A stretch of 64,000 nt of DNA from IMG/VR virus record IMGVR_UViG_3300032308_002246, positions 32,001 through 96,000 of that record; one strand, given 5' to 3'. Origin of the DNA: a virus. The notes beneath the pieces are model-generated. The model worked only from the letters and a program-made list of their open reading frames with translations. It did no database searches and was not told where the DNA came from. Position numbers and translations under genes: made by a program. Positions 33,201 to 62,000 of the stretch are shown here, piece after piece. Position 1 is the first letter of the stretch. Each line of letters starts with the position of its first letter.

Positions 33201-34254
33201 CTTCTAAATCAGATGACCTGAGCTTTTGTAGAAATAGTGATGAAAGTTGTTCAAATTCAGTGTCCCACCATTCTGTGGCTAATTTTGCGGTTTCTTCATC
33301 AAAAAGTTGCCTTGCAAGCCCCTCTCGTCCAATGATTGTTTTGAGTTTTGCAAAATTGGCTTCGTCTACTTCTGCTTTTGTTTTTTCAATATATCTTTCG
33401 TAGAAACCAGACCCTTCTGCGTCTGGTCCGAATATTACTTCTAGTATTTTTTTTCTTAATTCTGAATCTTCTGGGAGGTCAATCTCTCTTGGGACTTCGC
33501 TCATGTAGGAGCCGTATTTTCTTTCACCTACTGACTTGTGTTTCAAAGAAACTGCACCTATAGGGCCACTTGGTTTTTCTTCAGTCGCTTTCGGTGCTGG
33601 GCGAAGCCTATTTGACTCTTTTGGAGCTCTTGGTCTTTCTGTGGCCGATGCTTTGGGTCTTGGGGTTTTATCAATGCTTACTTCTGGCAGTGGCGGGGTT
33701 ATTCTTGGCTGTGGTTTAACAACATCCTGAAGGTTGGTAGTTGCTGCATCGGTAGTAGCTTCAATCTGATTGCCCCCTGGGGTAGGGTCTGGAATTCCGC
33801 GGCCAAAATTTACTTCAGCTACACCCTCAAGAACCAACTTGTCTTTATCTGCGTCGACAGCCGTATTCGGGTCCATATTTCTTGGAGCAACACCAATTGG
33901 CTGACCAACATTTGGTCCAAGGGCTTTTTCTTCTAGTTCTTTTTTGTTGATTACACGTCTTACTCTCTGAGCAAAATCTCTGTCTTGGTTTCTTCTACCA
34001 AGAGGGCTCGCCCCAGTGACTCTTCTATAGTCAGACTCGTTGGTGCATGGCATCCACAGGTATCCGCCAGTGGTTGAGTTGTACTGTCTGACCCCAATGC
34101 ATCCAAGCTGTCTTGCCCTTTGCCTAGCTGATTCTTTATCTGTAAATGAGTCAATAGAGCCTGGTCTTATTGCTCTTGAGCCAAAGCTAAGAGACTTTTC
34201 TTGGTTCCCATTTTCTATTGGGCAACAGTCGCCCTGCTCAAAATCGTTGGTCAT
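18217..34254 (-). CDS. Giant 5345-aa multidomain (polyvalent) protein in the head module
   Basis: N-terminal LGC.G...WMPC (DUF3721-like) and DPTPG module, HTH cluster (~23480-25070), ClpC N-domain (~20490-20976), NUDIX (~19340-19740, GGLRDGNEDYMTTATREGLEEVG), C-terminal zeta-toxin-like P-loop kinase (GGASGTGKT at 18781-18807); 14 linker motifs. Confidence 0.85.
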   Translation of the reverse strand: MTNDFEQGDCCPIENGNQEKSLSFGSRAIRPGSIDSFTDKESARQRARQLGCIGVRQYNSTTGGYLWMPCTNESDYRRVTGASPLGRRNQDRDFAQRVRRVINKKELEEKALGPNVGQPIGVAPRNMDPNTAVDADKDKLVLEGVAEVNFGRGIPDPTPGGNQIEATTDAATTNLQDVVKPQPRITPPLPEVSIDKTPRPKASATERPRAPKESNRLRPAPKATEEKPSGPIGAVSLKHKSVGERKYGSYMSEVPREIDLPEDSELRKKILEVIFGPDAEGSGFYERYIEKTKAEVDEANFAKLKTIIGREGLARQLFDEETAKLATEWWDTEFEQLSSLFLQKLRSSDLEEIDFDAALNEYQKIASISIEDGLNARMSALTGLYPNYGNHNVPSNIGFDYATQMVDFLKSGDSLASFGAKAIVESMQDATIEYDFPSYRVFGEKDEEGRLTDLTRHQMFRSLVGFAEKTRELSDEQAGTQLDKSLLGSVFNAFAMSMFMRGGMPTFNEAYETYLPNLAANEDSSVAMLRFAEIADALDTALVDHKEALRRARSEVIASNPELALDKTQERLSQETDLNLPIENSEFVKNIDSRDNVKITSRLAVLSKLSDDELIGFAEELGRRGIARRKNQAISFLDEMQPLSLDGAFETAQRITGLSNGKINFTDLAGALYTQNFFDGWMNRDGVSQTWESYLKFSKNSRTYNALKKMTPEKRAKFLGLDEATTEMLMDSAQENLLRWTDDEEVISADLLQTLKDMNMLLKDTEFESDSKNSTPHQNHAMQFGNSITKAVSHPIEQFISALNLRDMQLEEIWENTHTNSTKLAIDGLLGDSTEGAKNTAFKIASLLLPETRVSQIGEREDAFGINDAGVIASRRLKLNRYDQKGRSFIDLAIVADAQDNSGKQTVLERHEHLINSLGIIGTAIRTLGAYGDEINTIATNVKQIKNSVASEILEENGESFSELVDNYMDAAPFAWGPSGAMANRSGFEYPRERRQSGSWSPLANYAQSSMYLDYKNRKNRRNLDIANSVDANQNEVFEEISELMLTLRERVSNNTLKLSDYAKSYDQKTGVLSLDFYNPRKPTSALGDSPGLIKSITMLLAVAAANARNNRERSQAREILNELLDWAELYLPEYSKIRPRNDKALSDMLENGPIGKIGIEQAYAAIENKKHKTLKGRLRDFENKSQTIVFDSIADRNPASKLRELESELDEIVSEGWMNNRVLAGLFETISGHMDDAFEEGISERTRNRMRPIFDGFANAMRAKYDKDYAEAFGMINLDAIQRKRRRIAARSAQEVSDSSPVGRMGAGYSPQRLQLAENNKDSHLTEEFKKRWADIDESNITANEILNSKNPSLTMFDGNNLAFYWKDENSRLKYLQTANKRKLGKGYVGLPSSFGISSSFQKVKELNDSGLLEKIGLYPTKLEKHPFFVTFHGDKLVKFAGTPSDINADANSMKQILGAIHPELNPETFETVYQSWIRNPYMTISSSNGNEVGVRFGLDNDDTKMRNELRKRVRDIYDFVSRSTGGKVPKSQYPLETESGETAEIEFPATMKGLANDFFRRIQPSIANRGHSLESLSNVFNQNAEELALPETLNREQIGKFLRENFPEVLKSLKPEASKLDGITDNEVSEAVEIVSMLNDGTRVLKFGEIKELLSTKENGYEIWSNDAVDEVINTVNNYTAESGGSQFIETSAVGSMSSNTGRPSENLRDEFEAARTLRSIQRAKDMTPEQENAFRRAQWARQQLENIVEEDWVRFGPFDLTNAYRPIAEKQSGSLSFHIKSLGDRAVMEMFEEISSKFPDASNEESVKNFESRIRTALSKAARGDEITPRYPESWPPEMLDSDLNEILSPKEMAVVAQVEDQLDRETLVSMLGGELGDKDETRQEILRIVESLPKVTVPASPSSRDLIKTPEQMSQDILIEAFDGSPSSAKELVDSMSEQQLDALRKSFSVSDYTKNSFDNQNLQMQRASLIRQTSVAIAKLSQTEEGRNKIRQYVGEVADTLTDGANELLRKIQNSEIEEDDAYESLSRYVEDASSTQPISRLWFNAAAPLFSANNETSALLKASENDKKDRVNRLFAEIALSEESPEKVKNQLQRFVESNPVDGIGTREVYVASTPAGTTQSALEKKQSELISKYDGTSESAKEIIDSLTDEQIRKLWAKYIFPSLYRIGGTGPGSLIRKRSQKAAAERTQQALNRLGEKFKKSIYGLGGFVDSEGYSADDVNMLISDAISESFGVSSLENLTPEDRREYVSLVDYFLSGGRSLLGKGEYTEALRKLNSEKTPKAVQRRRIQRIDDEISAIVSDAGDKMDDAVSDLLSQYRNMSPEEIETVRKAEEEFEANQRRIRDIRAGRISPEDDFADAPDDWDDDEFSDSPVGSMARKPSGLTQKAQALLEAALNPHRKHDEQAKNEFGYIEQAAIDALGVRGINTPDGFFYTSPDEIAIDPQIEETLVNEINGLVDESFENTEFRKLKNGQLIYAPQRLTGYDAVSVQGIGADESNEQDSGVYNPEMDEDESLRPSNFNPDRHPIASALNDRYESFIGGNNNYFTRDWFHENGRYGTEAEALLRSINDEPGLVDMDKVLIYVQNQSGWLEGEDLEESIKAAESIRVPVVPQRYRSSGNGARYGMSSFSSQRRLSATEKMELDKQKKIARSKAKSSKALRDGWLKDMTSGLMLDESEIGLRDGYYPDAVIAGIKTALRENDQIDNLDSVLIAARNAANARSQAESRVKALAKVLEITQNSGDLISEIYSIDNAINELDDAEERTSRQYQERIRAQILSRVSATSSIIKAREMFIVGQKEKLRAGAINPRDYLISIQQWDSEYGPQILQMQAEIQSFSTKAEASSRARQDIIEQKNELMSRAAELKDMVADSAQYMNVLMAQRAVNESMKNLADNNGDGVIGSGPVGNMKKIGYLFGDSGAINGFDEYADNSSNLYTPFNISMTKKEKALSSVMLSQLRSVNGIQTIDLVDNRDVTARQRIESFRQNIQSSPVGAVRTLSNELTDMPTTLKNVLQNEYNRSVGKMIASEKENDIRNLINATYSSEGMPSRTSQILNEIDNGADVYSLARKNNIPVTEIFSIAAIRESLLASVKYDVQKLTLGQVADKYGFDKTRLTNAVNAYKNADKFRKSYAKMQQRFNELIPTNTLASAYSILNEEFPEITKTRGMGSAYKLVALNDETLGSVKERMARAMRLFADFPNMSPRVAAGLTGIHQDSAKSIYMALVNDGDRPSRPARRAPQNYSALPNDWDYMTYGERQDWLNSDEAKQRMGEQARNFALRQNAEDIESSGSMDGPYGAMAAALKKADLDKNIYGTNSSDENGVSPIFAWRGVKDSDLIRTGFLPTSKFIEAIPNSQNISDENFAVFLNTSPATAKKLRSGKFNLSVNAARKLAHSIGKNPENIWPAYAASEQEVGPDGDLLWIAGNWSEMKPVFESIESGQTDSEISSALGRTINPKMATARDLARNGKLEEFYKQVGKKNPSIDEASKFMSSIMPESRRDVVASFAKAGYNESDIVDTTGFNPNTVRNLLHELRKSGVAPSSVGSQEWIAKNRKAIVDDIASGMSKRQAMRKYGIGAAALNSIIQPSEENAQPRQSFRNAYEAMASGPAGAMASRRIPSDVSQSNGPTPEWDSDNPEVTVFLPDSPPVIVGNPFYGPVEARKFSDGEPKDQEALVKWFSGLGDLLKYHAFGGQLYEAAGGPDEDAPSVFPELENDKTKSVSDMIQEGQFPGLIRSMRKIMSESYNQMLLEQEITEAFGVDGYSESEDDAIEYESGFIDAESITSLDSPIAKDIMMIYRALGRTTAGFVPGDSNWINDAVRLMSRDSELERIGLNEDSRNRIKEWMRTATTREFKAAQVMSAVHSMMLDAVNDVNRAMYPISDFMGRTVADDQMLGWYLDRIFKSIYDEVGSPFVLQDIAREKGDKFVQLNPEQTERWYDSVKDLADTMGALFADAIEFSSANSKMSDDSFDMLSVAPRRAADGKFTIYGPDIVYSGFEDSRPYNKNVKWFARPGTEAEVDSLYEQYETSPDVYWWQDENGQISTDSPITTKDILAMDSGAEFSEYVKALTESLSDSPDENASAMLRQLFGITLSDGVSLNKDELALAKAYSQLSGFLRSEVDALKENQTRVSENMTMSSYFPWVNWSNSSDAYPVMSGDIASMLTPRQAERFEKINAFTEEKINSLDEDARATYQRYVESQKNTTAINNLRRTQGALNEVMTPMDSVFEQIEQLRANRNDSIRAIEILGALNGFAQEIGAEEIADTIDGLTMKVIDALNTNDENQAFSFIRDFASSAIAEKFGEYLNFFDSTISVGDAFDKIAQFIKAEDKRTQRNSLMPRYKREVIDAAPDSTFSSPRKFKNLKTFDSWLNDNGYEDLTYEYYSSEDEIPKNFFTESSELGDNRIVPPNDGPIGKMALNRYTKPNILSVVHAHEEAKLGKSSEVTIPHLLLGLARENIGKKSVNQSIAGRVLNRLGIDVNDLRNAVNNATTQNLDENAEKVISLSFGARKTMINSVREALNRGENIIDTEHLIAAIAKTEDGRDDGLSNILQSLGTSKAELLAESISTLKRFSMGRFPNESGPVGKMGIARDAILQKDRELEALRAENNSSNLWFNRDRNPAIRNNTASDSEQVQELQRLMDLYVSGVANRSIPAYDFREGASPFASDSILPTNSSFIYGEIGEEPSDIVGAIAYRSNLIEAMVDRSGKDYKNYTDLVAKAKSIFNNDKHIELFNDDSPTGSMSTFDGLIKSFEGIYGMPEMQPQDEYYETVYGPRDIASDNLRRAAYLQSNYSPLDISKNLTSGDDEDVTWSTNNWSLAKNKLTQASDAVIIRMNNNDLRSAEVLMIDRKSGPFTNAKALVGGLRDGNEDYMTTATREGLEEVGIDLESSIEAKPLGIITSPDWDPRFVKGARVGAGLFVVPWDSNVTAASDAKAANWVPLEDIARGKYPIAFGHAEWLRRAVAKMGKDYEGSNSADPFSDLRMSLAMRLNILAKAQRIRNQRIIARINKIRAEKDAERFLPNDKMPHPLMPWGVDFKSDSWNPDGPVGKVAKPSRPIVDKSLAEDLDLLGYQSGYSIDELNSSDPISTSQKYRLNGNRVSDDRYNGLWVPYIENSIARVSKPEFDSGNEQPTVYVLGGASGTGKTNARNTNFAGIPSYEDAVVVDPDDAKMIMPEARYWFEKRLPDAANLTHTESRALAASLMRRAASEGVDMTYDTSGQFNDGNRDLINWKNAGYKVVAHYFFSPDDVILERNAERFERTGRMVPDWIPPAINRTLYFQLPNLDPFFDELFVYDTTNDPMNPIMIARRAINEQLEVMDPKLFDFANFDRGR

Positions 34255-34319
34255 TTTCCCTCATGGTCTCACTAATGTGGAGCGCGTTTATCGTACCAAC
34301 AAATATAGCCGACTATTTC

Positions 34320-35153
34320 CTATTCAGGCATAAGCCCCTTATGGGATTTGATTTTTCTGGTTGACGGAACCCTGTGCTCGGTGTCAATTAATTTTGACAA
34401 AATCGGTGCAGAAACAATCCCACCGCCGTCAAGCGAAGATATTCCAACCGGGCCGCGCTCGTTGAGTTTTTCCCAGTTCGCACCACGGACTTTTCTTTTT
34501 GCTTTCCGTGGCGAGCCATTGTCTATTGATTCAAGACGTTCAACTATCTTTGATTTGACCAAGATGATTGGTTGATGAGACTTTGTTGAATTTTTTCTAG
34601 CCCTAGCCGCAGCTTCTGTATTTCTGACAAACTGTTGACCAGAAGCGCTACCTTTTCTTTTCTTATTGTTCGTAGCTCTTTTTTGTCCCGGGGTAAGTTT
34701 TGCCCAAGCTTTTGCTGGCAGGTATCTTCTTGTTCCACCGGTTCTTATTGCTGGTTTCCCGTCAGATGTAGTCCATTTTTCTTTAGTCCATTTAGAAAGA
34801 GACCTTTGTTTTTTGTTTTTGCCGCCTTTATAACCGCCACCTCGTTTTTTGTACTCTTGAGCTACAAGTTGGGCTTTTCTGGCAGACCACTGACCAGGTT
34901 TCCCACCTCTTGAGCCGGCCATGATGCGATTCTTTATTTCTTCTCTTAATCCAGGCTTTGTATAGTTTGAAGATTTTTCCTCTAACTCTGATTTCTTCAA
35001 AAATGATTCATTCTCTGCTTCGTTGCTCAGCCTTTGGAGTGTCTGCATATCGGCGCACGGCATCCATTCGCCTTTTTCATTTTTGTGCGCTCCACGGCAC
35101 CCCATGTATCTAGCAATCTTTAAAACTTGTTTTTTTCTGTCGTCGTCGTTCAT
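34320..35153 (-). CDS. Basic protein with DUF3721-like and DUF5872-like domains
   Basis: MGCRGAH...WMPC; NYTKPGLRE.IK.RIMAGS.GGKPGQWSARKAQL...Y...GGGY; SL.KWT.EKW...RYLP. Confidence 0.7.
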   Translation of the reverse strand: MNDDDRKKQVLKIARYMGCRGAHKNEKGEWMPCADMQTLQRLSNEAENESFLKKSELEEKSSNYTKPGLREEIKNRIMAGSRGGKPGQWSARKAQLVAQEYKKRGGGYKGGKNKKQRSLSKWTKEKWTTSDGKPAIRTGGTRRYLPAKAWAKLTPGQKRATNNKKRKGSASGQQFVRNTEAAARARKNSTKSHQPIILVKSKIVERLESIDNGSPRKAKRKVRGANWEKLNERGPVGISSLDGGGIVSAPILSKLIDTEHRVPSTRKIKSHKGLMPE

Positions 35154-35572: not shown

Positions 35573-35587
35573 TATTTATGCCTATCG

Positions 35588-38500
35588 TTAATACGGTTTG
35601 TCTGTTGTTCCATCTTTTTTGGTTACTTCAATGGTGTTCAGCCACTCACGTGCATCGTCAAGAGATGTAGCTTCGTTGAGCAGGATTAGACCAGTTCTGT
35701 TCGTAACCATTATATGGTTCTCGTCATTGTATTTACCAGGCGGAATACGCAAATATTGTTTAACTGGGTCTAGGTTGTATACCGCCGAATTGCTACTCAA
35801 ATAGACATCTACGCCTAGAATTGGGGCAAAAAGAACCTCATCGTCAAGATGGCGAAGATACTGCTGGCCTCTGTAAAGGCGTTTTACCTGCTCGTCTTCA
35901 TCGGTTAAACCCATTGCGTATAGTGCATTTTTTGCAATTTCCAGCTGTACATACCATCCAAATATTTCATTTCTTGTTGCGGCAAACCAATCTGGCCCAC
36001 CAATCTCTCCATCAAGGTAACCAGTTCCGGAGAGGTTTCTAATCATGTAATCAGGAACTTCATATCCAAAGTCATTACCAGAAGGTCTATTTGAGGTCAG
36101 ACCTGCAAGAATTGATGCATAAAGAGACTCAACCGAACCCTGGTCGGACCAGTTTGCATCTTGCGGCATTGGAAGGGCATTGAGCGCTATTTCTCTCCAT
36201 GTATTGTCTATGTCCCTATCGGAGTATCTATCTGCGGTAAAAGCAGATTGTCCATCTCCACGGGTTATCTTTTTGTTAAAAAATGTAGTCAACTGTCTAA
36301 TTTGTGATGCCAGTATGCTCATCTCGGCGCGGCCAATTATTCTTCCAGTGCGTGGGACCAGAGCGAGTATTGCTGATTTTTCTTCGCTGTTTCCATAGTA
36401 ACCAGTTATAGGGGTTTTAGCGGCAGAGAAGTTATCTCCTTCGCCTCCAGCAGAGCCGCCTTCTCCAGAAGGGATGTATCTTTCCCTAAATATGTAGTCC
36501 AACACCATTTCTTTTTGGCTCTTGCCAGTTTTTGCTCTTGAGATTCCCCTAACTATAGGAATAAACATTGGCTGGTCATCATCGTCAAGCATTTTCAAAA
36601 GAGACTCAGCTTCTTCTGGAGAAACGACAACCGTAGGCTCGTTGTAGCCGTTCAAGCCATGTGCTGCGGTGTGCATGGCTTTCTTTTCGTCGCCAATGTT
36701 TTCAAGAGTTGCATAGTTGATACTTTGCTCACGAGACATTTGTACTGTGTTGAAGTAGTCTATTTTGCCATCTGACAAAATAGATGACTGATACTCTTCT
36801 CCTGGTTGCAAGACAAGTGGCTGTTGTTCAAATATGCCCAATGTTCTATTTTTTTCAAGTAGTCCAATAATTTCATCTGGCGTTCTGAGTATTAGGTTTC
36901 CATCTTCGTCTTTTAGAGGAGCCAGCAATGTTGGGTCAACTCCGCCAATAACCCTTGTTCCGTCTTCTTGGGCTTTGACTCTTGCTGCAGCCAATCTGTT
37001 TCTAATCTTTGCTGAATTTTGCATAGTCTCTTTGATGGACTCGGTTATTCTTGGGAAAATAGAAGGGAAAACCCTGTCTGCTATTTCCTCAAGTGATTCT
37101 GCTAATTGAGCATTAAGAACAAATTCTCTTCTCTGTCTTTGATTATTTTTTGGAGTTCTTCTCCAGTCGGACAAAGCTGAATCCCTTGAACTAACAGCGT
37201 CTGAATGTGCTCTCTTGAGTTCTTGCCACGCCTTGTACCAAGCATTGCCGTCATTTGATTCAAGTGCTTGGTTGACTGCCTCCATCACCTTTGCGGCATC
37301 TGTAACCGCATAGCTCCAGCCAACATCTTTGTCTTTTGCAATAAACAGTGGCTGGGATGGGGCTTTATCCCCTTCCATCCCTGAGACAAGAGAGCCAGAA
37401 CGGTAGTAGCTTCTTCTTGGGTTGAAGTACTGGTCTCCATCGGCATTTCTTACAGTGTCTGGTGTACCTGGTGTTCCATCGTCATTTGCTGGGATGTCAA
37501 CAATCACCAAACCTGGATATTCTTTTTTAACTCTGTCTGGCAAGCTTTCCCATATTGCGTCTCTTGCTTGCTTGTATGATGCAACGCTGTTTTCGTGTGT
37601 ACCCGGAGCCAGCGATACGAAGCGGTCTTGACCTCCAGGCCCACCAACATTTGATTTGATTTTTGGATAAGAAACAATCTCTGCACCGGTTTTGCCAGAC
37701 CTCTGCATTGGAGGATAAGGCTGCATAGGGGTGAACTCGGTATCTATCGATATTGGGAAGTCTGAATAATCTTCTCTATATTGACCAGAGATTGGGTCTC
37801 GCAATAGTCCGGTGTATTCCTCGATTACATATTTGGCATTTTCTGAAGCTTCTTGTGTTCCATGCTCTACAGCTGGAATTACAACATTCGTGGCTTCATC
37901 ATTGGTTGGCTCAACAACTGAATCAACATTGAGAGATTCTGGGGTGTCAATTTCTGTAGAAACAGGGTCAATGTCTGCAGGAATTGTTGCCTGTGGAGAA
38001 ACATCTTGAGTTGCTGGCTGGCTTGTGTCAACCGGCAAACTAGGTTGATTTGTTTTTCTTGGTCTCTTTGGCGCAACTGGTGCAGCTGGTTTTTGTCTAG
38101 GAGTTTTGGCTGTGTTCTTTGACAGTAGGCCGGCATCTTCCAGAATCCACTCTCTTAAACCAGGCTTGAGAGACGCCCAGTCTGACTTTTTGTTTTTTGG
38201 ATAAAGCGGTTCTGTTGAATCAAGGAAGTCGTCAATCACAACTATGTTGTGTGCTTGGTTTTTGATTATTGCAGCTTTTCTTGGCTGTGTTTTTGCCAAA
38301 TTTGACATCCACTGCTCAATTGACTCTTCTGTTAGGTCGTCAGATGGATTAAGACCAATTCTCTTTCTCCAACCGTTCTCAAGCCGTGTTCTAGCCTTCT
38401 TCATTGAGTCTTCTATTGAAGCTTGTTCAGTAGGTGTGTAGGCATCCCAGTCTTTTATTGTTTTTGCAACTCTTTGCGATGGAACTATGTTGCCGTACAT

Positions 38501-39922
38501 CAAGCTTCGAGGATTTGTTTTGCTTAAAGAAACAGACCGAGCTCTTTGTCTAACACCAACTGGCTTATTTGCTTTTGGAGATTCATTTGGTAGCACTGAG
38601 TAGTCAGTTTTTGGCTTACTAAGTCTATTGGCGAGTCTGTCTAGTCGTTGAGCGGCTCTTGAGCGCATTGACTCTCCAGAACCATCAGGAGTCTTACCAA
38701 TTTTTTTACGCTTCTTACCTCTTCGTCTATTTGCCTCAAAATCGTCATCTGGAGTTAGTGAACGACTTCTAATCTTCTTGTCAATTGGGGAAATCTTTGG
38801 AGTCTTGCCTTTTTTTACCCTTCTATTTGAGCTTGGCAAAATATTTTGGCTGTCTTCGCTTGTAGCTGCATCTTCTGGTGCTGGAGGTAGCGCAAATTGG
38901 TCACCGGCATTGGAGCGCTCTTCTGCGCGTCTTGCTGTTCTTGAAGTAACAACATCTGCATCAACAAAATCTGGTTCATTTAACTTTGGTGTTACTCTTT
39001 GCCCACTAACGCGGTCAGCAAACTGGGCAAGTCTTTCTGCTCGAGAATTTCTTCTCTTTGAACGTGCTTGGGGCTTTGGCATGTATGTGTCAATGACATC
39101 AGTATCTATTGGCTCTTCTAGTTTTGCAATTCTTCGTTCTATTCTTCTCTGTTCTGAACGAATTTTGTTAGCTTGTCTTCTTGAGGCTCTTGCCAACGAC
39201 TGAGCAGAACGAAGGTCGCCCGTTGCTTCTAGGAGCGCCCCACGTTCTCCAAGAGGCGTGTTTAAATCGCCTCCAGCAAGGTCTATAAGCCTTGAGCCAA
39301 GCCGTCTAGCCATTCCTGGCAGGCATCCACGGCCGAATCTGTTTGTGAACTGTCCTGCGGTATCTCCGCTCGTTGGAGGGCATCTCCAAGCTCCGCCGCC
39401 TGGACTGTCTGGGTCCCAAACTGCTCTTACACCCTTTGCTCCAAGCAATAGTGAAGATGAAGCTTTATCGGATATGAATGCTTTTGCTTTGAAGTTTACG
39501 GCGCTGCGCTTGAATTGAACCTCAATAAGACTCAATGCCACATCTGTTATAGGCCATTCAGATACAAGCTCAAACTCATCTTCTGAATAAAAATCGTCCA
39601 TTTCCTCAGGAAGAGATTTCTTCTCAATCTTTAAAACAGGTGCTTCAATTAAGTCCTTAAGCTTGTTTAGAGTTTTCGGAGAGAGGATGTCTGATACTGC
39701 AGAAATAGAATCGTCATCAAGTATTTTTTCTTTGTCAAAATCTAGTCCAAAATCAAGAGAATCTAGAATTTCCTGAGGAGTAACGCTTGTTCCGTTAGCC
39801 CACGAAGCCCAGTCGTTTGCTTGACTTGTGTTGCCTACGCATGTTTTCCCGTTTTTTGAGATGACAATTGCACCGTATGGCACTTTTGTGTCTGAGTCTC
39901 TAATTAAGATAAATTTACTCAT
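35588..39922 (-). CDS. Large (~1444 aa) head-module protein with RC..FTN..C module and possible ART-like C-terminal domain
   Basis: Likely start MSKFILIRD at 39922 (8-nt overlap with the upstream gene); WRCPPTSGDTAGQFTNRFGRGC; C-terminal GYNEP..V, IVRG, GG..GEGDNFS, GVD, VTNRTGLIL. Confidence 0.75.
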   Translation of the reverse strand: MSKFILIRDSDTKVPYGAIVISKNGKTCVGNTSQANDWASWANGTSVTPQEILDSLDFGLDFDKEKILDDDSISAVSDILSPKTLNKLKDLIEAPVLKIEKKSLPEEMDDFYSEDEFELVSEWPITDVALSLIEVQFKRSAVNFKAKAFISDKASSSLLLGAKGVRAVWDPDSPGGGAWRCPPTSGDTAGQFTNRFGRGCLPGMARRLGSRLIDLAGGDLNTPLGERGALLEATGDLRSAQSLARASRRQANKIRSEQRRIERRIAKLEEPIDTDVIDTYMPKPQARSKRRNSRAERLAQFADRVSGQRVTPKLNEPDFVDADVVTSRTARRAEERSNAGDQFALPPAPEDAATSEDSQNILPSSNRRVKKGKTPKISPIDKKIRSRSLTPDDDFEANRRRGKKRKKIGKTPDGSGESMRSRAAQRLDRLANRLSKPKTDYSVLPNESPKANKPVGVRQRARSVSLSKTNPRSLMYGNIVPSQRVAKTIKDWDAYTPTEQASIEDSMKKARTRLENGWRKRIGLNPSDDLTEESIEQWMSNLAKTQPRKAAIIKNQAHNIVVIDDFLDSTEPLYPKNKKSDWASLKPGLREWILEDAGLLSKNTAKTPRQKPAAPVAPKRPRKTNQPSLPVDTSQPATQDVSPQATIPADIDPVSTEIDTPESLNVDSVVEPTNDEATNVVIPAVEHGTQEASENAKYVIEEYTGLLRDPISGQYREDYSDFPISIDTEFTPMQPYPPMQRSGKTGAEIVSYPKIKSNVGGPGGQDRFVSLAPGTHENSVASYKQARDAIWESLPDRVKKEYPGLVIVDIPANDDGTPGTPDTVRNADGDQYFNPRRSYYRSGSLVSGMEGDKAPSQPLFIAKDKDVGWSYAVTDAAKVMEAVNQALESNDGNAWYKAWQELKRAHSDAVSSRDSALSDWRRTPKNNQRQRREFVLNAQLAESLEEIADRVFPSIFPRITESIKETMQNSAKIRNRLAAARVKAQEDGTRVIGGVDPTLLAPLKDEDGNLILRTPDEIIGLLEKNRTLGIFEQQPLVLQPGEEYQSSILSDGKIDYFNTVQMSREQSINYATLENIGDEKKAMHTAAHGLNGYNEPTVVVSPEEAESLLKMLDDDDQPMFIPIVRGISRAKTGKSQKEMVLDYIFRERYIPSGEGGSAGGEGDNFSAAKTPITGYYGNSEEKSAILALVPRTGRIIGRAEMSILASQIRQLTTFFNKKITRGDGQSAFTADRYSDRDIDNTWREIALNALPMPQDANWSDQGSVESLYASILAGLTSNRPSGNDFGYEVPDYMIRNLSGTGYLDGEIGGPDWFAATRNEIFGWYVQLEIAKNALYAMGLTDEDEQVKRLYRGQQYLRHLDDEVLFAPILGVDVYLSSNSAVYNLDPVKQYLRIPPGKYNDENHIMVTNRTGLILLNEATSLDDAREWLNTIEVTKKDGTTDKPY

Positions 39923-41978
39923 TTGATTGTCCAACGTATTTTTTAAGTAGAGATACCGAAGTTGAAAGTTTTCTAATTCTGTTGTCATATAGAGACTTCA
40001 TAATCTCTATATGCTTTCTTTCAGATTCGCTTATCTGTCCATCAATTGATGCCCTATTAGCAAAATCGTCAAAATTAAAAGACCTTGCTCTTTCCAGCAA
40101 TTCTTTTAACATTGATAAAACTTTGGCTTTTTGATTTTTTCTTAGTTTTTCAAAATAATCCTTATAAGTCAATTTATCACTTTCCTGAAGTATTTCAGCA
40201 ATTGACATGTTTATCCTGTCGGATTGATTTCTTTTACTTAAACCAGAAAGTCCGGAGTATATTGATGGGCTTGCAAATGTTCTTTTTTTGTTGCCTGTTG
40301 AGATTGTGTAGATTGAAGAGGGATTTCTCATCTTGGAGTCGGTTAGCAAATCGGATATAAACAGTCTTGCCATATCAGAAGCGTTTGCCATATCCATTGA
40401 CGCTGTTCTCGTCGAGCGAGATGTTGCTACAGAGTCGTTCGGATATGAGACTAGGTATCTTCTTCTTGAGCCTTCTCCAGAAAACCAAATGTCTGGGGAC
40501 ATCATCCCAAGGTGCGATTGAATTTCCGATGAAAGCATTGCACCTAGATGCTCGTACTCACGGCTTGGAGATACTTCATATATCTTCTGCCTGCCGATTT
40601 CGTGTTCAATCAATCTGTCGTTGATTTTTTTGGTATCTACAGATTTGCTTTTCCCAAGAGCCGTTCCACGTAAACGTGGTTCTATGTTCCCAATTTGTCC
40701 ACCTGAATCAATCAGCTTTATGGCATCTGCAAGTGATTCAACAAAACCCGCTTCATCTTCTATTTGTGTTTTTCTTTCGCTTATAACAGGTTTTGGTGTC
40801 TTTATGAATGCTTCGTAATGCCATCTTCGCATTTGTTTCTTTGTCTTATTGTTTGGTAAAAGAACCTCTATGACATCATTAGGGTTTTTGATGTTTTCAA
40901 ATTTTTGCTCGTAAGCGATTGCACCATTCATTTCGGCTGCTATCATTTCAAGTCTTGAAGCTGGGTTTTGTCCAACTTTCATTTTTTCCGCTTCGGCTAC
41001 TGTTCGACCAAGTTTTCTTCTTTCTCCTGCTGAAAGATTTCTTTTTTTACGAAGCGATATTGTTGAGCCATCCGGCAGTACATAAATAACACTATTTATA
41101 CCAGTATTTGAAAGCATTCCAAGCTCTGTTTTGCCTAGTTCGCTTGCAGAAACTATTTTCTGAATATACGCAGCGCCTTCCATGTCTCTGTTATCTGGAA
41201 CTGTTCTTAGAACACGTGAAGAGACTACTGGCGTTAGTACAACTCCGTCTCTTCTAACAAGCCTTGCTATACCGCCTGAAACCGGCCTCATTTCTTCAAC
41301 AACATTTTCTATTGCTTTTTTGTAAGCAGCAAAGTTCATTCGTGAAACTTTTGGAATTATTATATTTGGCTGTCTCATCAAACTAACTTGGTTGTTTCCA
41401 ATTAGTGGCTTTATAACTCGTCCGGAGGTGCCAATTTGCCGAGGTGTATTTCTTGAGGCAAGCTCTGACACATTTTGCAAACCTGCGGCTATTGACATTG
41501 CAAGTTCAAAAAGTCTTTTCCCGCATGTTGTGTAATACTTGTTTGTAAATCTTCCACCAAACTGAAATCCCTCTGGGCATCTGTATCCACGTTCAGGTTT
41601 TGGAAACCCGCCAGCACTTGCTCTAGCTAGTGGGTTTGGTATTCCACTACCCCCAGGCATCAACATTGACCAAGCAGCTGAACGAAGTGGATTCTTGAGG
41701 TCACCAGGCAAAACAGAGCTAATCAACGATTGAACGCCTTGCCCTATCGGGTTGTCACTGCTTGCTATCCCTGCTTTTACTGAAATCAAACTGTCTTTTG
41801 ATGAGGATATTTGAGCTCTGCATTTAAACTCAATTGCGCTCTGCTTGTCTGTTACAACAATCAATGGTGATTTAACAACATTGGGGCGTGTAACGGCAAT
41901 TGCAGGCATGAGAGTTCTATTTCTAGTCACACCTGTTTTATCGCATGCAGCGCATTCGGCATTTTTTTTACGCATCAA
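39915..41978 (-). CDS. 687-aa protein with RC..FTN..C module and a degenerate HipA/PI3K-like kinase domain
   Basis: YRCPEGFQFGGRFTNKYYTTC; HLGAMLSSEIQSHLGM.SP; DLLTDSKMRNPSSI in place of D.L..N.DRH..N. Confidence 0.65.
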   Translation of the reverse strand: MMRKKNAECAACDKTGVTRNRTLMPAIAVTRPNVVKSPLIVVTDKQSAIEFKCRAQISSSKDSLISVKAGIASSDNPIGQGVQSLISSVLPGDLKNPLRSAAWSMLMPGGSGIPNPLARASAGGFPKPERGYRCPEGFQFGGRFTNKYYTTCGKRLFELAMSIAAGLQNVSELASRNTPRQIGTSGRVIKPLIGNNQVSLMRQPNIIIPKVSRMNFAAYKKAIENVVEEMRPVSGGIARLVRRDGVVLTPVVSSRVLRTVPDNRDMEGAAYIQKIVSASELGKTELGMLSNTGINSVIYVLPDGSTISLRKKRNLSAGERRKLGRTVAEAEKMKVGQNPASRLEMIAAEMNGAIAYEQKFENIKNPNDVIEVLLPNNKTKKQMRRWHYEAFIKTPKPVISERKTQIEDEAGFVESLADAIKLIDSGGQIGNIEPRLRGTALGKSKSVDTKKINDRLIEHEIGRQKIYEVSPSREYEHLGAMLSSEIQSHLGMMSPDIWFSGEGSRRRYLVSYPNDSVATSRSTRTASMDMANASDMARLFISDLLTDSKMRNPSSIYTISTGNKKRTFASPSIYSGLSGLSKRNQSDRINMSIAEILQESDKLTYKDYFEKLRKNQKAKVLSMLKELLERARSFNFDDFANRASIDGQISESERKHIEIMKSLYDNRIRKLSTSVSLLKKYVGQSNE

Positions 41979-42991: not shown

Positions 42992-42992
42992 G

Positions 42993-52380: not shown

Positions 52381-52573
52381 TTTTTTGCTCCTTGTATTGC
52401 ATGGTTGTCGAAAGACAACCCTTTGGGCTCATGCATCCACCACACGGAAACTGGCGCTTTTCGCCAGCAACAATGCACTGATACTTTGCCTTAGAACTGT
52501 TTTCTTTAGTAGGTTTAGCATAACCCATAACAGGGTTCTTGCGGTTGTACCCACTTTTTCTTTCTGTATTCAT
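52367..52573 (-). CDS. Small Cys-rich protein
   Basis: YQC...PCGGCMSPKGC resembles FVC...ICDNCPGGC in the downstream gene. Confidence 0.55.
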   Translation of the reverse strand: MNTERKSGYNRKNPVMGYAKPTKENSSKAKYQCIVAGEKRQFPCGGCMSPKGCLSTTMQYKEQKNGNG

Positions 52574-52577
52574 AAAA

Positions 52578-53078: not shown

Positions 53079-53084
53079 ATGAAA

Positions 53085-56000
53085 TTACCCTCTATCTCGT
53101 GGAACCGTGATTCCAGGTATGTTGTATCTTGGGAAGTTGGATGAGTAAAGCCTTGTTGGGTCCTCAAGTGACACTCCGCTTCTCGTCTTTTCCATTGCAT
53201 CAATCTGTGAAACACCATCAACATCTCTGTTCTCAAGCATTTGCCTTCTGAGTTGCAGATAGAACCAGTTCCTTCGTTTTTGAAGCTTTGGAAGGTAAGA
53301 CACAAGCTTTCTTACTTCGGCTTTTTTCTTATCACGAGCATCTCCAGCATGTGTCCTCATTCTTGACAAATACTCAAGTCTTCCGATGATTGTGTCAAGG
53401 GCTGCGTCTGAAGCTGTCCATCCAGAGAAAAGCATGTATTCAGAAGCTTCTTCGGCACCACCATATGGAAGAACGGCATCACCTTCTTCGTACTCTCTTA
53501 TGGCGGCTTCCGCGTTGCCCTTTGTCACTCTTGCACCATTTCTTCTAACTGGGTCATTTGATACATATCTGCTCCCAGGTATTCTTCTCATTTCCCCAGC
53601 TGGCCCATCGTCAAATGGGAGTTCTGGCTGTTCGTTTTCAAAAACCCCAGATTCAATGATTGGGTTCTGGGGTTGCTCTTGTCTTTGTGGTGGGTTTTGT
53701 GAAGAAACCCGTGATGGGGCGAATGGATTAAATGTTCTGTCGTTTCTGTCCATTCTCTTAGCACCACTAAGAGCCTCAAGCCTGCTGTCAAAAGGACGGC
53801 TAGCCGTAACATTCCTGTTAGCCGTGTCAATTATCACCCACTTGCCATCTTGGGTTGGTTTTATGTCGTATCTTTGCGGAACAAAACGTCTGCCCATTGC
53901 GCCAACAGGACCACCATCGCCGCCGTCAGAACCATATGGAGGACTGTTGAACAACTTGTTAAGTTCTTCAATTTCACGCGCAGTGTCTACGTCAATGTCC
54001 GGTTCAGTCGTTTCTTGACCATATGAGAAATAACCAGCATAAGGTCCGCCAAGGTCATCTATTTCTTCTACTGAGCGTTCATTGCCATTTGCATCGTAAA
54101 GTATGTTCTTGTTTCTTTCGGTTGCTGATTGGAACCAATCAGAAAATCCATCTCCAAGCTCTGCTCTTCTTCTTGCAATAAGTCTCTCAAATGTCTTGCG
54201 TCTATCGTTCTGAATCATCCGCTCAGCTCTCTCAAACGGGGTCATCAAAGCTGCCATACGTGCCTCAAGTATTTCTTTACCCTTTTTGGAGTAATCAACA
54301 ACTTGATTTGCAGATATATCTAAATCTCCGGCGACAGAAAGAATATCGTAAGGCATTCCATCCATCTCGCCCATTTCATCTCCACTCATTTGTGAGTCAA
54401 ATATTCTTTGCGTGAGGTAGTGATGAATATCAATTAAGTCATCGTCTGTCGGATTTTCCCAATCCCTGTCTTCAATCGTAGAAAATCTTTTTCCAATTTG
54501 TTCTGCAACAATTTTCCAGTTGTCGTCGCCGTAAACCTCGTAGAGCCTTCTGTCAACATGCCTACTACCGCTAATTGGGTTTTCAGGCATTGAACCAGAA
54601 GACATAAGCCCAACTGGACCTTGAGGGGGATTCTGTTGTATTTCTCTAATCGCGGCTTGTGCGTCTTCTGAGTCAAAGTATCTTCTTTGAATTTCTCTAC
54701 CAACAGATTTTAGCTCTTTCATAATTGCAGATTTAGCGGCTCTGTCTTTTCGATGCGGTCTTCCATATGAACCGAATAGCTTTTCCATTGCATCGTTCCA
54801 TGCGCTCACAAGTTCATCATCAGACATATCTGAAACATTTTTGCCAGACATTGCCCCAATAGGTCCAAAATCATCATAAGAAAGATTCATCTCCCTGTAG
54901 GCATAGTCTATATTTTTAATCAACTGCCTTGGGCTCATGTCTGAGTCAATGCGCATTTCAAGTTCATCAAATGTAATGTCTCCAGATTCAAGCTGACTTA
55001 TAATTTCATCAACGGCATCAAGTGAGCGTATTTCATTTGCTCTTTCTCTATCTACAACATTTAGTCTTCGTCTTATATTTTGCTGACTGGTTGAATGTCT
55101 CTGAGCAAGCTGCGCTATTGCTTGTCCCTCTGGCACCGATGAAAGCAAATCTGTCAATTCGTTGTAAATCTGAATGTTGTATGAATCGTCAATTTTTCTT
55201 TCTTCTGTATCTCTAGGTCTTACATACCTTCCCATTTTCCCAAAAGGAGAAGAATTCATTTCTGGGTCAAATGGCATTGTCCCAGAAATCTCGTATTCAC
55301 CATTTTCAAGCCTCGTAATAGAAACACCAAACTCATCCACATATGGACCATTTGCAGTTTTCATTATTCTCTCAAGTGCGGCGTATCTGTCTAAGACATC
55401 GTTAAGCTGCGAGTCATTCCTGTTAGCAGAATTAAGTATTCTAGAAAGCAATCTTTGCGATTCAGCTTTTCTTTGTGCATTCGGCATTGACGCATATGTT
55501 GAATCGTGCTTATTTGGTTTCCAAAATTCAGTTGGAGAATAGTTTGGAACACGTGCGGCGTTCAATCCCAGTGAACCAACCGGGCCGGTATCAAAGCTAT
55601 TAATTTGATTTTGTCTACTTGCTCTAGCAAGTTTTTCTTTGGCTCTGTTGTAGGCTGCAATATCTGAAGCACTTGACACCGCAAAACTTCTTCTGTCTCC
55701 GCCAATTCGACGGCTCAATTCATCTAGTGAATACGGCAGAGATGTTGGTATTGGTTCTGCAGTTGACCTAACGGCAATCATGTATGGGTCAAATATCTTT
55801 CGTTGGCCATCTGCTTTGTCTGTTGCATGTAGAGATACATTGCCGTCTGCATTTTTGACAAACTTGACAAGTTCAACTGCGTAAACTTTATTTCCGTATG
55901 GGAACTCTGCGTCAATCACATCCCTGTCTGCTGTTGCCAGCGTATTTGCAACGGTTCCTTGATTATCGTCAAGAGATATGAACAAAGTTCTGTCTCGTGC

Positions 56001-59000
56001 ACCCCTTCTGAGCGCAGTTGTCTGAGCAACGATATCAGCAGTTCTTTTCTGCCTCTCTGTTTGTCTTTCCTTTGGTCTGGCTTGCTCCTCACGTGGTGGA
56101 GTTCTTTCTTGCTGACCGGGCTGTTCCTCTCTTGGTCTTCTGTTGCCTGAATCCTCTTCAGTGGGTCTGCTAGTTGATTCATTGCGAGGTCTGCGTTCAC
56201 CACGTGGTTCTCTGCGTGGTCTTCTTTGACCCGTCTCGTCTTGCGCCTCCGCCTCTGGTTTTGGTTTCTCAGACTTTCTTCCGTACATTCTGTCAGTTCT
56301 AAAATTCTTTTCCTTACCGTCTTTTTCATCAATGCCGACGATGTATGCGCCAAGAAGTTCGCCGTCTCTGCCAAAACGCTCTTCGTATCTTGGTTCGGTA
56401 ACTGTTCTTTTTTCTGGTCTGTCTGCATCTGGTTTTAGATATTCAAAAGAAATTCCAAGACCGGAATCGCTTGCATCATTTACTGCTTTTTTGATGTCTG
56501 ATTCGGTGAAGTTTTTGCCAAGTATTATTTCGGTATCTGTTTCAATAACAGGAGCAGATGAGTCAGAGCCAAGACCATAAAGGCCAAGCTTTTCATATTC
56601 CGCTTTTATCTCTTGTGCAGTTACTGTTTCCCCAGCCTTTGTCCTTATGTCTGCTTCAATTTCCCATGGCTTTGCCGAAATGAATACGCCATCTGTTGCT
56701 GGATGTCTTCCTCTTTGGGTTCTAATCTTTTCTGTAGTTTCATCAAAGATTTCACCAAGTTCTTCTTGTGGCCAGTCTTCATATGAGAACAGGTCCCCAG
56801 CTACTGGGTGATTCCATTTGACCAGATTGCCATTGTCGTCTTCTGCAACCAAAAATACTGGACCAGTAGAGTTTGAACCAACATTCTTGTGTTGATACTT
56901 AGTTATCTCTCCGGTCAACTTGTTTACATATGTAGAAACAAATTTTCCATCGTCTTCAACTTCTGATTTGTCTATGGCCGGTTCGCTAACTCCAACTGTT
57001 GGAGAGCTTGGTCTTGTAGAAGTTTGTCCAGTTTGTCTGGCAGCACGATTTTCTGCCATTCTTTGTTTTGTTAGGTTTCGTAGTCTGTCCCACTGCTCAG
57101 GCATCAAGCCACCATCAATGTCGTACCTATACAGAATTTTTTCAATCTCTGCATCATCCTGTTCAAGCATTCGTGCAGCATTTACTAAACGTTTTGCATC
57201 TTCTGGGTCTGCGCCAAGCAGTTCTCCAGTTTCCTTATTTACTTTAAGTACAGCTTCTTCTCCTGGCGCAAGAGTGTATCCACCATCTCCGCTTTCGAAC
57301 TTGTCAATCAATGACGATGCGTAAGACCACTGTCTATCTGAAAGACCGCCATTTTTTGCGTACTGGTAGTACATGTCGCTTAGAACTGAATAGTTCTTTT
57401 CTGGGCCAGTAAGGTCTTTTTTATCTTTTGAGTTTACTGTTGCTCTAAGAGCATCAAAATCTGGACTATTTCTAAGCGTGTGAATTTTTTCTATCACCGA
57501 AGGACCGAAGTCTGGAGTGTTTGGACTTTTAGTAACAGACAAGTCATCGCTACCTTGGAATCGCCACTTCCATGAGTCCATGGTCCAGAATTTTTCATCA
57601 GGTCCACTTTCAAGTCTTCTTAACTTTTTATTTCTGGCTACTCGTTTTGCATTTCTTTCATCCTCATCCCAGCTCTCAGACATATCAGAAGTTGCAAAAA
57701 CTGTACCGCCGAGCCTGAAGTAGGAAGGCTCGCCATCGTATCCAGCGCGGTCATTCCAAGAAACAACTCTCAAACCTTCTCTTGGAGAAGTTTGAATTGG
57801 TATAGGACGCAATTCTTCAGTTCCATCTGAGTTAAGGAATAAACCTTGTGGAAACATTTCATCGTCAAGGAACATTCCACGCTCAGCAGCTCTAGCCATT
57901 GCCTGAGCCTCAGTTTGAGTAACAAATGAATACTCTGGAGTATCAACAACCATGTAGTTGTATCCACCATCTTCTGCCAAAAGTTTTCTGCCCAACATTT
58001 CGTGCAGTTCTGGTTGGTTGAATCCACGCACTCTGCGGAGGTATGGCTTCTCCTGCATTGGAACACCGTCGGCAAGGTCTTCTGTAAAGTCGTATTCTTC
58101 TACTATTCCATCGTCTGCATTGGCATAAATTCGTACTTTTTTGTTCTGTCGAATCGCCATTGCACCAATCGGACCATCTGAAAGGTATTCGTTTATTTCA
58201 TTGTCTAGTTCTGTCTTGCCTATGTATTTTCTATACAGGCTGCCGTCGCTTGCATCTGCTTCAACAAAAAATCCTTCGTCGTCAACTCCGTATCTGGTGT
58301 TTGAAACGGATGGCGGCTTTGACGTTGAGCCATCTGCTTTTCTTAGAGTGCGCAAAGACTTTGTCAACCTTGAATCAACATCGTCAATTCTTAAATTGAA
58401 ATCTTTTGCAATATCTGCATTTGTTGCGCCGTAGAGTTTTTGAGACATTATGTCTCTATCTGTTCCATCAAGCAGGTAACCGTGTTCTCTCATCAGGTAG
58501 CGCATCTCAGAGCGCTCTGGGGTCTCTGTAGCAGAGAGAATGGTTGCTTGTGCTTTTACAATCTTTACAACATCATTTCTTGAAATATCGTTGTCTTTTG
58601 CTATTTGCTCAATTGATGAATTTCCAAAACTTGAGTAAACATTTCTCATCAGCTTTTCTGGGTATGAACTCTCTTCATTGTTGTCATTGCTGATGATTCT
58701 GTTTATTGCTTTTACTGCACCAGAAGGACCGTCTGGAGCGTTGATGCCGGAATAGGGTTCTCCGGTTACCGAGAAGTTACTCAAAAAGCTGTTTATTATG
58801 TTTGGAAGATACTCGTCAAGCTCTGCGTCATCAGAGTCGTTTTGTTTTAAGTAGCTCTTCTTACGACCGGTTGAGTCAAAAACTTCAGATGCAAAACCAT
58901 CCGGAAGAGCTCTTTCATACGAAGACATTCTGCCAACAGGGCCTGAGCCCAAACCTCTTTTGGCAATTTCTTTTCTTACTTCTTCTAATGTGTCTTCTCC

Positions 59001-62000
59001 AAGATTTGTTAGTGCAACTGCATAGTTGATTTCTTCTTGCAATTCAGAAACTTTTTCTAAATCTCTTTCAATTCTTGCAATTTTCTTACGCTCAAGTGCG
59101 TCCATGATGTCGTCTTTTATTTCTACAACATACTTATCAAACTTTTGCAGATTTTTTAAAAGTGATTCATCGCTGAGCTTTGGAATTTCTTCTTTAATTT
59201 TTCTGCCAGCTATAGAAGAAATTTTTCTCATTTCTTCTGCTGTATCTATGGAGTCAAGTAAATCAATATCTTCTTTTGTTAGTTCGTCAATCATTGCTCT
59301 CTGTAGAGAGTCGGCAAGCGCATTGTTGGCTTCATCCGAGCCCCTTGGGTACCCAGCAATAGTGTCTGTTTCAGGAGTTAGTTCAAGCCCACTTAGTCTT
59401 GGTCGCTCTGGTGATGGTGCTGCGTCTAGTCCTGTCCCACGAAGTCTTGGGCGCTCAGTCGGTGCTCCTGGTGTTATTGCAGTTCCACGCAATCTAGGTC
59501 TCTCTGCAGGGGTTTCTGTCGTTAAACCAGTCCCACGAAGTCGTGGTCTTTCTGGTGATGATTCTGGTGGAGAAACTCTTATTCTTGGTCTTTCTGTAGG
59601 TGTTTCTGCAGATGTTGTCGGTGGAGAAACTCTTATTCTTGGTCTTTCAATTCTTGATGCAGGGCTTCCGTCGCCACGGTCAAAAACTACACCATCTTCT
59701 CCATCATCAATTGAATCAAAAGATTCATCAAAACCATCAAAATCAACAAAGGAGTCTCCTGTCGACATTCTTCCAACAGGTGCGCTGTAGAAAATCCTGC
59801 TAAAAGGTTTATCTTTTAGAGTCCTATCTTGACCTTTTAAATCGTCGACAGACTCGGCTGCCCTTATTGACTCCGTCCATTTTGCATTGGCCATTGAGCC
59901 AACAGGCCCATTGTCAATCACCATGGAGTCTTGCAACTTTCTCATTGCAATCTGTTCTTGTCTTCTTACAGTTTGTCTATCTGTGCCAAGTCTTGCTGCG
60001 GCTTCTTGGAGAGTCTCCCCATCAAGTCTTCTCTTCATCAAATCTGTTTGTTCGTCGGTAAGAGTTGAAGCAGGGTCATCAAGCATTCTTCTTGTTACTC
60101 TGTTTGGACTGTTCTCATCCATGCCACGAAGTTTTGACATGTGTCTAAGCTCAAGCTGTCTTGCTTTTTGTCTTGAAACTTTGAATCTCGAAGCCGCTTC
60201 TTCAAGTGAAATTCCATCATTTTCTCTTGCAAGGAATATTTGTCGTCCAAGTTTTTCTTCTCTAAGAAGTCTTTTTTCTCTTGCTGTAAGAATCGAGTCG
60301 TTTGGCAAGGAAGACATTGCTCCACGTGGGGAATCAACATCAATTACTCCTGCTTCTTCAGGTCTCATTACATATGGGAGGTCTCTGTTATTTCTTCTTC
60401 CCATTTCATTTATGTATCTCTCAACGGTTCTAGGAGAAATTTTAAACTTACGGGCTACTTGTTCATAAGCTCTTTTTGTATTTTTATCTTTTGATACAGT
60501 ATTGAATTCATTGAATACTTTTTCCGCAGTATCCATGTCAACTGGTCGTTGGTCTTGTGGGAATCTTCTTCCATCAGCCATGCGACCTACAGGACCACTA
60601 GATGCTCTCTGTGGGACTCTTTGTGGAACTGGTGTTCTAGTTGGAACAGGAACTCTCTCAGGTTCTCTCTGTGGCACTCGTTCAGGAACTCGTTGCGGTT
60701 CTCTCTGTGGAACACGCTCAGGAACTCTTTCTGGTTTTCTTTCAGGAACAGTTGCTGGTCTTGCTGGTTTAATTGCTGGCTTGGCTGGTTGTACTTCTGG
60801 AATTTCTTCCGGAACTTCAACTGGTCTTGGGACAGCAGGCATGTCTGCTTCGCCAGGTCTCTTGGCGCGTCTTGGTTTAGATACGCCTCTCTTGCCTCGA
60901 GACCTTGGTGCTTTTGGGATATCAAAATCACTCCCAGGAGTTGGGTCAACTACGCCACGCCCTCTGTTGATAGTTGGAATTCCTTCAAGAACATATAGGT
61001 CGTTATCAGCGTTACGGGCAGTAAACGCATTCATATTTCTTGGTGTTCTCCCAATTGCATTACCAATAGCTTTTTGTTCAAAAGAATCCAATACATTTGA
61101 TAAAGCTTTATAAGCAGCAACACTGACTTTGTCAATGTCTGGAATAACAATTCCGTTTTCTAAAACTTTTACATCAAATGAATGGTATTCAGCAATTGTG
61201 TTGATTATTTCAAAAGCTTCAATTTTCTCTGCATTATCTTCTGGCTCCAAGAAAAGATGTTCGCCTCTATTTGCAGACTTAAACTCTTCAAGTGTGCTTA
61301 GATGATTTGGAACCGAGCATAATGTTTCACCTTTTGCGCAATCGTCACAACATGCTTCATGTGGAACAGCAGCCGAAGACATTGCGTCGTAAAGACTTCC
61401 ATTTGTTTGTGGCATGGATATGACCATTGCACTAGGTGTTCCACTGTCACCGATACGACTTCCGTTTGAATTATTTGTAGGTATATAGACGGTTTCTGGT
61501 TTTACTTGTTGCGCCGTTCCGAACATAAACTCATCACCATCAAAGTGGTAAGCGACTCTTAGTGTCTCAACAGCCTGACCGGCACCCATCTCAAAAATTG
61601 CAATGTCGTTATCGGCGTTAACTAGTCTTACCGCTCCGCCAAAGTGTGAAGCAAGTGCTCTTGTCAGGTCAGCCGCTCTTCCAACTACTGAGTTTTCTGA
61701 ACTGTTCATTGCCTCGTAAATTGCGCTTACATGGTTTTTTGTTTCCGAGCTTTCGCTGTCGTCTTTTTTCTTTGTATTGCTATAACGCTCAAGGAGTCTT
61801 CTTCCTTTTGCAGCAAGTTTTGCAGCGTCTTCCATATTCTTTGGAACTGGCTCACCCCATGCAGCCGCCGAAAGAGCAAGTCTTGTTGGTTCTCCATTTG
61901 GCTTTTTCATTGGGCCAGATGGGTTTGTAAAAAATCTTGTGAGAAATGAACCCTTGCGGCGCATCTTTTCTGGTGTGTCAGCTGGACCCTTAACGCCAGG

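Follow-up and report, generated by a model that had tools for sequence, protein, structure and literature searches.

In phage T4, the internal proteins IPI, IPII and IPIII carry a capsid targeting sequence of 10 residues (Mullaney & Black 1996, reviewed in PMC9026906). This sequence is cleaved off by gp21, is able to load foreign proteins and has been proposed as an evolutionary device for new cargo, with protease propeptides suspected of the same role (PMC9026906). The present analysis concerns a peptide module of ~45 residues, ending in D-P-T-P, found in large proteins of the head-gene block of IMG/VR virus record IMGVR_UViG_3300032308_002246. The stretch analysed, hereafter the window, comprises 64,000 nucleotides (nt), bases 32001-96000 of a 173,962-bp record with direct terminal repeats; coordinates below are those of the window. 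Like the T4 sequence, the module is a short common leader on otherwise unrelated head proteins, located upstream of a (here putative) prohead-protease site. The T4 sequence occupies the extreme N-terminus with its 10 residues, whereas the ~45 residues of the module lie 13-570 residues into the chain, behind folded domains. The partners differ as well: T4 has the gp21 protease and the gp22 core, the window an S78 protease together with a capsid protein of HK97 type to which a scaffold extension is probably fused. In sequence, no relationship of the module to the T4 targeting sequence was detected.

Phage HK97 offers a second parallel, since its maturation protease gp4 reportedly has a C-terminal encapsidation region, as described by Duda, Oh and Hendrix in 2013. 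The protease encoded in the window belongs to the same Peptidase_S78 family, and the module would lie at the C-terminus of the protease fragment after the predicted first cut. In contrast, the gp4 signal is private to the protease while the module is common to at least four other families, and here the protease heads a polyprotein of 3,190 amino acids (aa). Encapsulin cargo-loading peptides, a subject reviewed in PMC7355545, are stretches of ~10 residues, usually C-terminal, that steer cargo to an HK97-fold shell. By analogy only, the module would resemble such tags in being short, Gly-containing and unfolded, and in bringing diverse cargo to the inner face of a shell. Polyvalent proteins and MuF polymorphic toxins are giant multi-domain effector chains whose genes lie among the late and head genes, and packaging and delivery are predicted for them (PMC5512222; PMC5576092). 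They resemble the proteins considered here in that variable domains follow a conserved N-terminal part with a (here putative) trafficking role. Their address is a MuF or another known head domain, whereas here MuF resides on a separate neighbouring gene and the candidate address is a new N-proximal element of 45 residues without Pfam or PHROG family. Finally, N-terminal propeptides are removed in giant phages (PMC10052503), in parallel to the leader removal proposed below.

Three canonical copies of the module occur in the window, as listed here with the Met-centred motif nearest to the protease-borne copy:

33775-33927, minus strand: canonical module, aa 110-160 of the 5,345-aa protein, after a DUF3721-like domain
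50654-50794, minus strand: canonical module, aa 25-71 of the 852-aa protein, with GPVGQM (50636-50653) from the next residue
60933-61073, minus strand: canonical module, aa 529-575 of the 3,190-aa polyprotein, after the S78 protease, DUF6321 and a Cys-containing middle region
60579-60596, minus strand: first GPVGRM of the 3,190-aa polyprotein (aa 688-693), behind the module and a Pro-rich linker

The first-pass annotation had reported four module segments in this region. The segments are real. Plus-strand translation of the coordinates yields nonsense, the peptides being on the minus strand, and the frame was shifted, by 1 nt for the 852-aa copy and by 1-2 nt for a variant in a 1,748-aa protein considered below. 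In an all-versus-all blastp comparison of the 14 block proteins, the module is the sole similarity among the 5,345-, 852- and 3,190-aa proteins (E-values of 7e-13, 7e-11 and 7e-16). A hidden Markov model (HMM) built from the three copies and run against the six-frame translation of the whole 174-kb genome recovers these three and nothing else significant. At the nucleotide level the copies within the window are 58-70% identical, with the same codon at 7-13 of 19-27 conserved residues. Because about half of the codons for conserved residues differ, the window copies appear to be old and kept by selection on the peptide; the identity level and the codon differences together rule out a recent DNA repeat or gene conversion as their origin. 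In two relatives (G003 and G002), within-genome copies have a mean identity of ~0.79 versus 0.71 for orthologues, a weak concerted signal that is not relied upon.

The strongly conserved core of the module reads N-P-x-T-A-x-[DN]-A-D-x-D-x-x-V-L-E-G-x-x-x-x-N-x-G-R-G-x-x-D-P-T-P and is preceded in many copies by K-A-x-G-x-P-I-G. Within it, A-D-x-D is invariant. A profile made from 14 sequences and searched against 1.84 billion representative proteins gives 39 matches. Two of them, unrelated repeat proteins, were discarded, and the other 37, each standing for a representative cluster, are true carriers. Their lengths range from 852 to 6,391 aa, apart from two fragments of 220 and 496 aa. Each carrier has a single copy in its N-terminal part, at aa ~13-62, at 100-160 (giants of five to six thousand aa), at 200-330 or at 520-573 (protease fusions). 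All 37 keep D-P-T-P unchanged, and conservation ends immediately behind it. The protease-borne form is present in at least three representative clusters (P0005, P0030 and P0034).

A scan of viral contigs gives 10 module loci, usually with three carrier proteins per phage and one copy apiece. Every contig with enough context shows the same syntenic block, running from portal-MuF and protease to the HK97 capsid gene. A search for co-occurrence with HK97 head genes had been suggested at first pass; in these data the module is confined to one syntenic block beside an HK97-type capsid gene. The observation extends to a small, coherent phage clade. Look-ups in family and structure collections return little. 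For none of 14 module copies is there a Pfam family at E-values up to 10, bar one chance match; PHROGs give no match at the module on the carrier proteins; the best match of a PDB profile search with the module has an E-value of 1.7; and the ESM Atlas holds no usable match for it. As a sequence family, the module is new.

Within the block, five families include module carriers in one lineage or more: those of the protease polyprotein, of the 852-, 1,466- and 5,345-aa proteins, and of the second half of the 1,748-aa protein. For the 852-aa protein, matches to the other carrier classes cover only 45-100 aa around the module. The 1,466-aa family is one example of exchange. In its orthologues from the G002-type lineage (P0009, P0011, P0027, P0033, P0039 and P0042), the canonical module spans aa 210-270, and P-T-A-S-M follows ~55 residues past it. 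In the window protein and its G003 and G001 orthologues, both the module and this downstream Met-centred motif are absent, and a different conserved Cys-containing segment occupies the module site. The segment, at ~aa 200-240 of the window protein, is of the type W-R-C-P-P ... G-Q-F-T-N-R-x-G-x-G-C and may represent another kind of leader or bind metal. The early description of the module as a portable element on unrelated chains is supported: it is a separable unit and the only similarity among the three canonical carriers of the window, and homologous sites differ between lineages in whether they have gained, lost or replaced it.

The 5,345-aa family illustrates what lies behind the tag. Its leader (aa 1-160/200) is the best conserved part, with 52-59% identity versus 31-34% overall, and only 12-97% of the downstream chain is alignable. 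Such alignments are what a fixed address in front of changing cargo would give.

The variant in the 1,748-aa protein required separate treatment:

45264-45383, minus strand: diverged copy of the module in the 1,748-aa protein (aa 953-992), at the point where two genes have been joined

It is the best remaining match of the three-copy HMM, with a non-significant E-value of 0.15, and covers the first half of the module only. Residues 1017-1743 of the 1,748-aa protein are homologous to stand-alone proteins of ~900 aa from other lineages (L010, 893 aa; P0018, P0031 and P0036-P0038), which bear a canonical module at aa 30-82. Residues 1-898 match a separate 963-aa protein, encoded directly upstream of the 893-aa gene in that lineage. 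When the second half is aligned with its stand-alone homologues, the weak copy coincides exactly with their canonical module, K-A-L-G-S-P-I-G facing the usual first half and Y-D-G-D-N-D-G-S-V-Q-D the A-D-x-D-x-x-V-L-E-G core. In both, the same basic N-R-R-x-R-R stretch comes next, and a positionally conserved Met-centred motif follows ~55-80 residues on. Because of its position in the alignment, and despite the E-value, the fourth copy is taken as a true diverged homologue. On this comparison, two genes have been fused to give the 1,748-aa protein, whose internal copy is a relic lacking the N-x-G-R-G-x-x-D-P-T-P half. The 963-aa and 893-aa genes are separate and adjacent in the G002-type lineage, and in L020, another relative, the gene upstream of the 917-aa homologue encodes 3,764 aa. 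From these two arrangements, fusion and fission of head-block genes seem frequent.

Met-centred motifs accompany the module. A strict form, [GSA]P[VILA]G.[MLIV], occurs in the block only in the four module proteins, as had been noticed at the outset, with 11, 2, 3 and 11 matches, one of the last-listed 11 falling within the protease domain. If the match within the protease domain is set aside, the module precedes every motif in the three canonical carriers, in agreement with the order originally described for three of the proteins. This order is weakly informative, as the module is N-proximal anyway and the chance of finding it is ~0.08 by our estimate. As a rule, the placement of the module ahead of each array of GPVGxM linkers does not survive: distant relatives keep the module and have other Met-centred motifs. 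In place of G-P-V-G-x-M, these relatives show recurring P-x-G-x-M, I-x-G-x-M or D-x-P-T-A-S-M. A Met-centred motif of the local type is found within 0-90 residues behind the module in many carriers; a lax regular expression for such sites in the 37 carriers proved too noisy for quantification. The K-A-x-G-x-P-I-G half of the module was considered as a pseudo-cleavage site and rejected, because it does not co-vary with the motif type, staying P-I-G where the cut-type motif is P-T-A-S-M.

It is tempting to see in the module a leader for procapsid incorporation, comparable in action to the T4 capsid targeting sequence, and we give this reading an even chance. The module would be a short docking segment, probably unfolded, that binds one common receptor within the assembling HK97-type prohead. 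The likeliest candidate for this receptor is the scaffold (delta) extension or the inner face of the capsid protein, with portal-MuF less likely. In this way, the shell would take up the prohead protease together with several giant multi-domain cargo proteins as it assembles. The protease would then cut the Met-centred motifs downstream of the module, freeing the cargo domains from the leader; after the first cut of the polyprotein, the module would stay with the protease fragment, detached from cargo. Prohead binding, the receptor, cleavage and any role of Ca2+ are what we infer from comparing sequences.

Several features make loading the best explanation. The shell has to enclose its prohead protease, which has the module in common with the giant cargo. 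Loading is favoured further because the module is single-copy, N-proximal, confined to the head block, better conserved than the cargo and exchangeable between families. It is also favoured by the 1,466-aa family, because module and downstream Met motif are present together in orthologues of the other lineage and both are absent here. An AlphaFold2 (AF2) model of the isolated module, from a 14-row alignment, has a predicted local distance difference test score (pLDDT) of 50 and no secondary structure, at most a hint of disorder; the lack of a confident fold is as expected of a docking motif.

Other observations weigh against a loading leader. Three large block proteins, of 1,466, 687 and 499 aa, lack the module, and may or may not be packaged. 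The complete relative G001 has a 789-aa protease protein without a canonical module, with F-D-G-D-S-D-G at the equivalent place, so the canonical form is not obligatory for loading of the protease. A 953-aa protein of G002 has a cut-type motif and no module. At ~45 residues and with an invariant D-P-T-P, the module is longer and more rigid than the T4 sequence, which may point to chemistry beyond docking. An AF2 model of aa 1-690 of the protease polyprotein, made from a shallow 8-row alignment, has a mean pLDDT of 40, with the module below 50, too low to speak for or against docking of the module on the protease. Lastly, the phage is uncultured and the module is known here from sequence alone.

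The rival that survives best, though we consider it unlikely, is a protease-docking exosite: the module would recruit or activate the S78 protease, in cis on the polyprotein and in trans elsewhere, without binding the shell. Such a role would account for the restriction of the module in the window to proteins that also bear putative cut motifs, for its joint loss with the motif in the 1,466-aa family and for its presence on the protease polyprotein itself. However, the P-I-G half stays constant while the cut motif shifts from P-V-G-x-M to P-T-A-S-M between lineages, there is one copy per protein even with 10 or more presumed sites, and the 953-aa protein of G002 has a site and no module. Moreover, docking of the protease is compatible with loading and does not exclude it.

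Less probable again is that the module serves as a hinge or structural spacer that binds Ca2+ in the D-x-D-x-D manner, organising the linker between N-terminal domain and cargo and holding no address information. Classical Ca2+ loops follow D-x-[DN]-x-[DN]-G; their position 8 is hydrophobic and their position 12 acidic. The invariance of the A-D-x-D core speaks for such a hinge, as does the D-G-D-x-D-G found where the module has diverged, in the 1,748-aa protein (D-G-D-N-D-G-S-V) and its G003 orthologue as well as in the protease protein of G001 (D-G-D-S-D-G-F). The canonical A-D-x-D-x-x-V-L-E-G, in contrast, misfits the loop at would-be positions 6 and 12: counted from the first Asp, it has no Gly at position 6, and Glu stands at position 8. 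In addition, a spacer is unlikely to be single-copy, N-proximal, the best-conserved part, common to five families and limited to one head block.

An ejection or portal-passage signal, ordering the exit of cargo through the tail at infection, is improbable in our view. The module does have a leader-like position on effector-looking proteins (with Zeta toxin, NUDIX, Clp_N and sigma-70 region 4 domains), and the first-pass annotation had considered ejection beside prohead loading. It is the less likely half of that suggestion: if the adjacent motifs are cut, the module is off most cargo domains before DNA packaging. This is plainest in the 852-aa protein, where the motif is directly behind the module and a cut would remove the tag from the cargo before packaging. 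The protease, which is not expected to be ejected, also bears the module.

A self-processing element, cleaving autocatalytically at the Asp-Pro bond at its C-terminal edge, perhaps triggered by Ca2+, is highly improbable. Autocatalytic precedents exist in the Asp-Pro processing of FrpC and at the GDPH sites of mucins, and the D-P-T-P that is invariant in 37 carriers, the halt of conservation right after it and the acidic D-x-D cluster upstream would suit such a reaction. Yet the module has no sequence match to known Asp-Pro self-processing modules of the FrpC or GDPH type and no structural match to known self-processing modules, the conserved module of FrpC follows the Asp-Pro bond where here it precedes it, and diverged copies lack D-P-T-P. 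Equally slight is the chance of a Ca2+-responsive clip, in which A-D-x-D would sense an ionic change at maturation or DNA entry and the Asp-Pro bond would break itself or serve as first processing site, releasing or even covalently transferring the giant effector chains within an HK97-type capsid.

The head-gene block, including all module carriers, lies on the minus strand. In the order of transcription it encodes the MuF protein, proteins of 3,190, 166, 499, 852, 1,748, 153, 201, 687, 1,466, 140, 277 and 5,345 aa, and the capsid protein. Its main members are the following:

62742-63896 and on past the edge of the window, minus strand: protein with a MuF domain, probably fused to a portal, first in the block
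53085-62657, minus strand: 3,190-aa polyprotein, protease-led, module carrier
62142-62570, minus strand: Peptidase_S78 prohead serine protease domain, aa 30-173 of the 3,190-aa polyprotein
48308-50866, minus strand: 852-aa protein, module carrier
42993-48239, minus strand: 1,748-aa protein, fused gene with the diverged copy
35588-39988, minus strand: 1,466-aa protein, with another segment at the module site
18217-34254, minus strand: 5,345-aa protein, module carrier
16550-17872, minus strand: HK97-type major capsid protein (440 aa), extended at its N-terminus by ~150 aa

Processing is presumably the task of the Peptidase_S78 domain, and the ~150 aa that extend the capsid protein are probably a scaffold (delta) domain. 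The 3,190-aa polyprotein has DUF6321 at aa 196-267, and sigma-70 region 4 and helix-turn-helix (HTH) domains further on. Between DUF6321 and the module, at aa 434-450 (~61300-61360, minus strand), C436, C440 and C447 are invariant in eight orthologues and may form a metal-binding site; G001 has a Gly/Cys-rich run at this place. Between the module and the first G-P-V-G-R-M, aa 577-687 (~60600-60930, minus strand) constitute a Pro-rich linker with repeated units of the P-E-R-V-P-Q-R-E type, where G001 has an internally duplicated Pro-rich stretch.

In the 5,345-aa protein, the DUF3721-like N-terminal domain spans aa 38-73, and Clp_N, NUDIX and Zeta-toxin domains are located far downstream. DUF3721 is found both in this protein (34030-34140, minus strand) and in the adjacent 277-aa protein (34320-35153, minus strand), which also has DUF5872, and the gene pair is conserved in the distant relatives L012 and L020. 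The 499-aa (50881-52380, minus strand) and 166-aa (52578-53078, minus strand) proteins share a C-terminal domain of 69 residues (45% identity, E-value 2e-16). The 499-aa protein, for which no Pfam or PHROG family was found, is kept in all four lineages, shortly downstream of the protease gene. The listed frames of the 687-aa (39915-41978, minus strand) and 1,466-aa (35588-39988, minus strand) proteins overlap by 74 bases; the true start of the latter is probably further downstream, because its closest orthologue, L011, aligns only from residue 16.

Collectively, we put forward the loading role as a well-supported hypothesis, not as a result. The function proposed would be a variant of a known principle, the leader-directed loading of head proteins, carried out by a new module family. 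Its taxonomic reach is narrow, with 37 representative clusters among 1.84 billion, and points to a rare group of large uncultured phages. If the proposal is true, the module would be a natural, recombination-portable address for HK97-type capsids, and would provide a defined peptide to try as a tag for bringing foreign proteins into HK97-fold shells, in the way the T4 sequence is used in T4. For the phages themselves, one tag would load both the maturation protease and megadalton-scale effector polyproteins with toxin-like, NUDIX, Clp_N and sigma-factor-like domains, and this would account for a clade that swaps very large cargo under a constant loading step.

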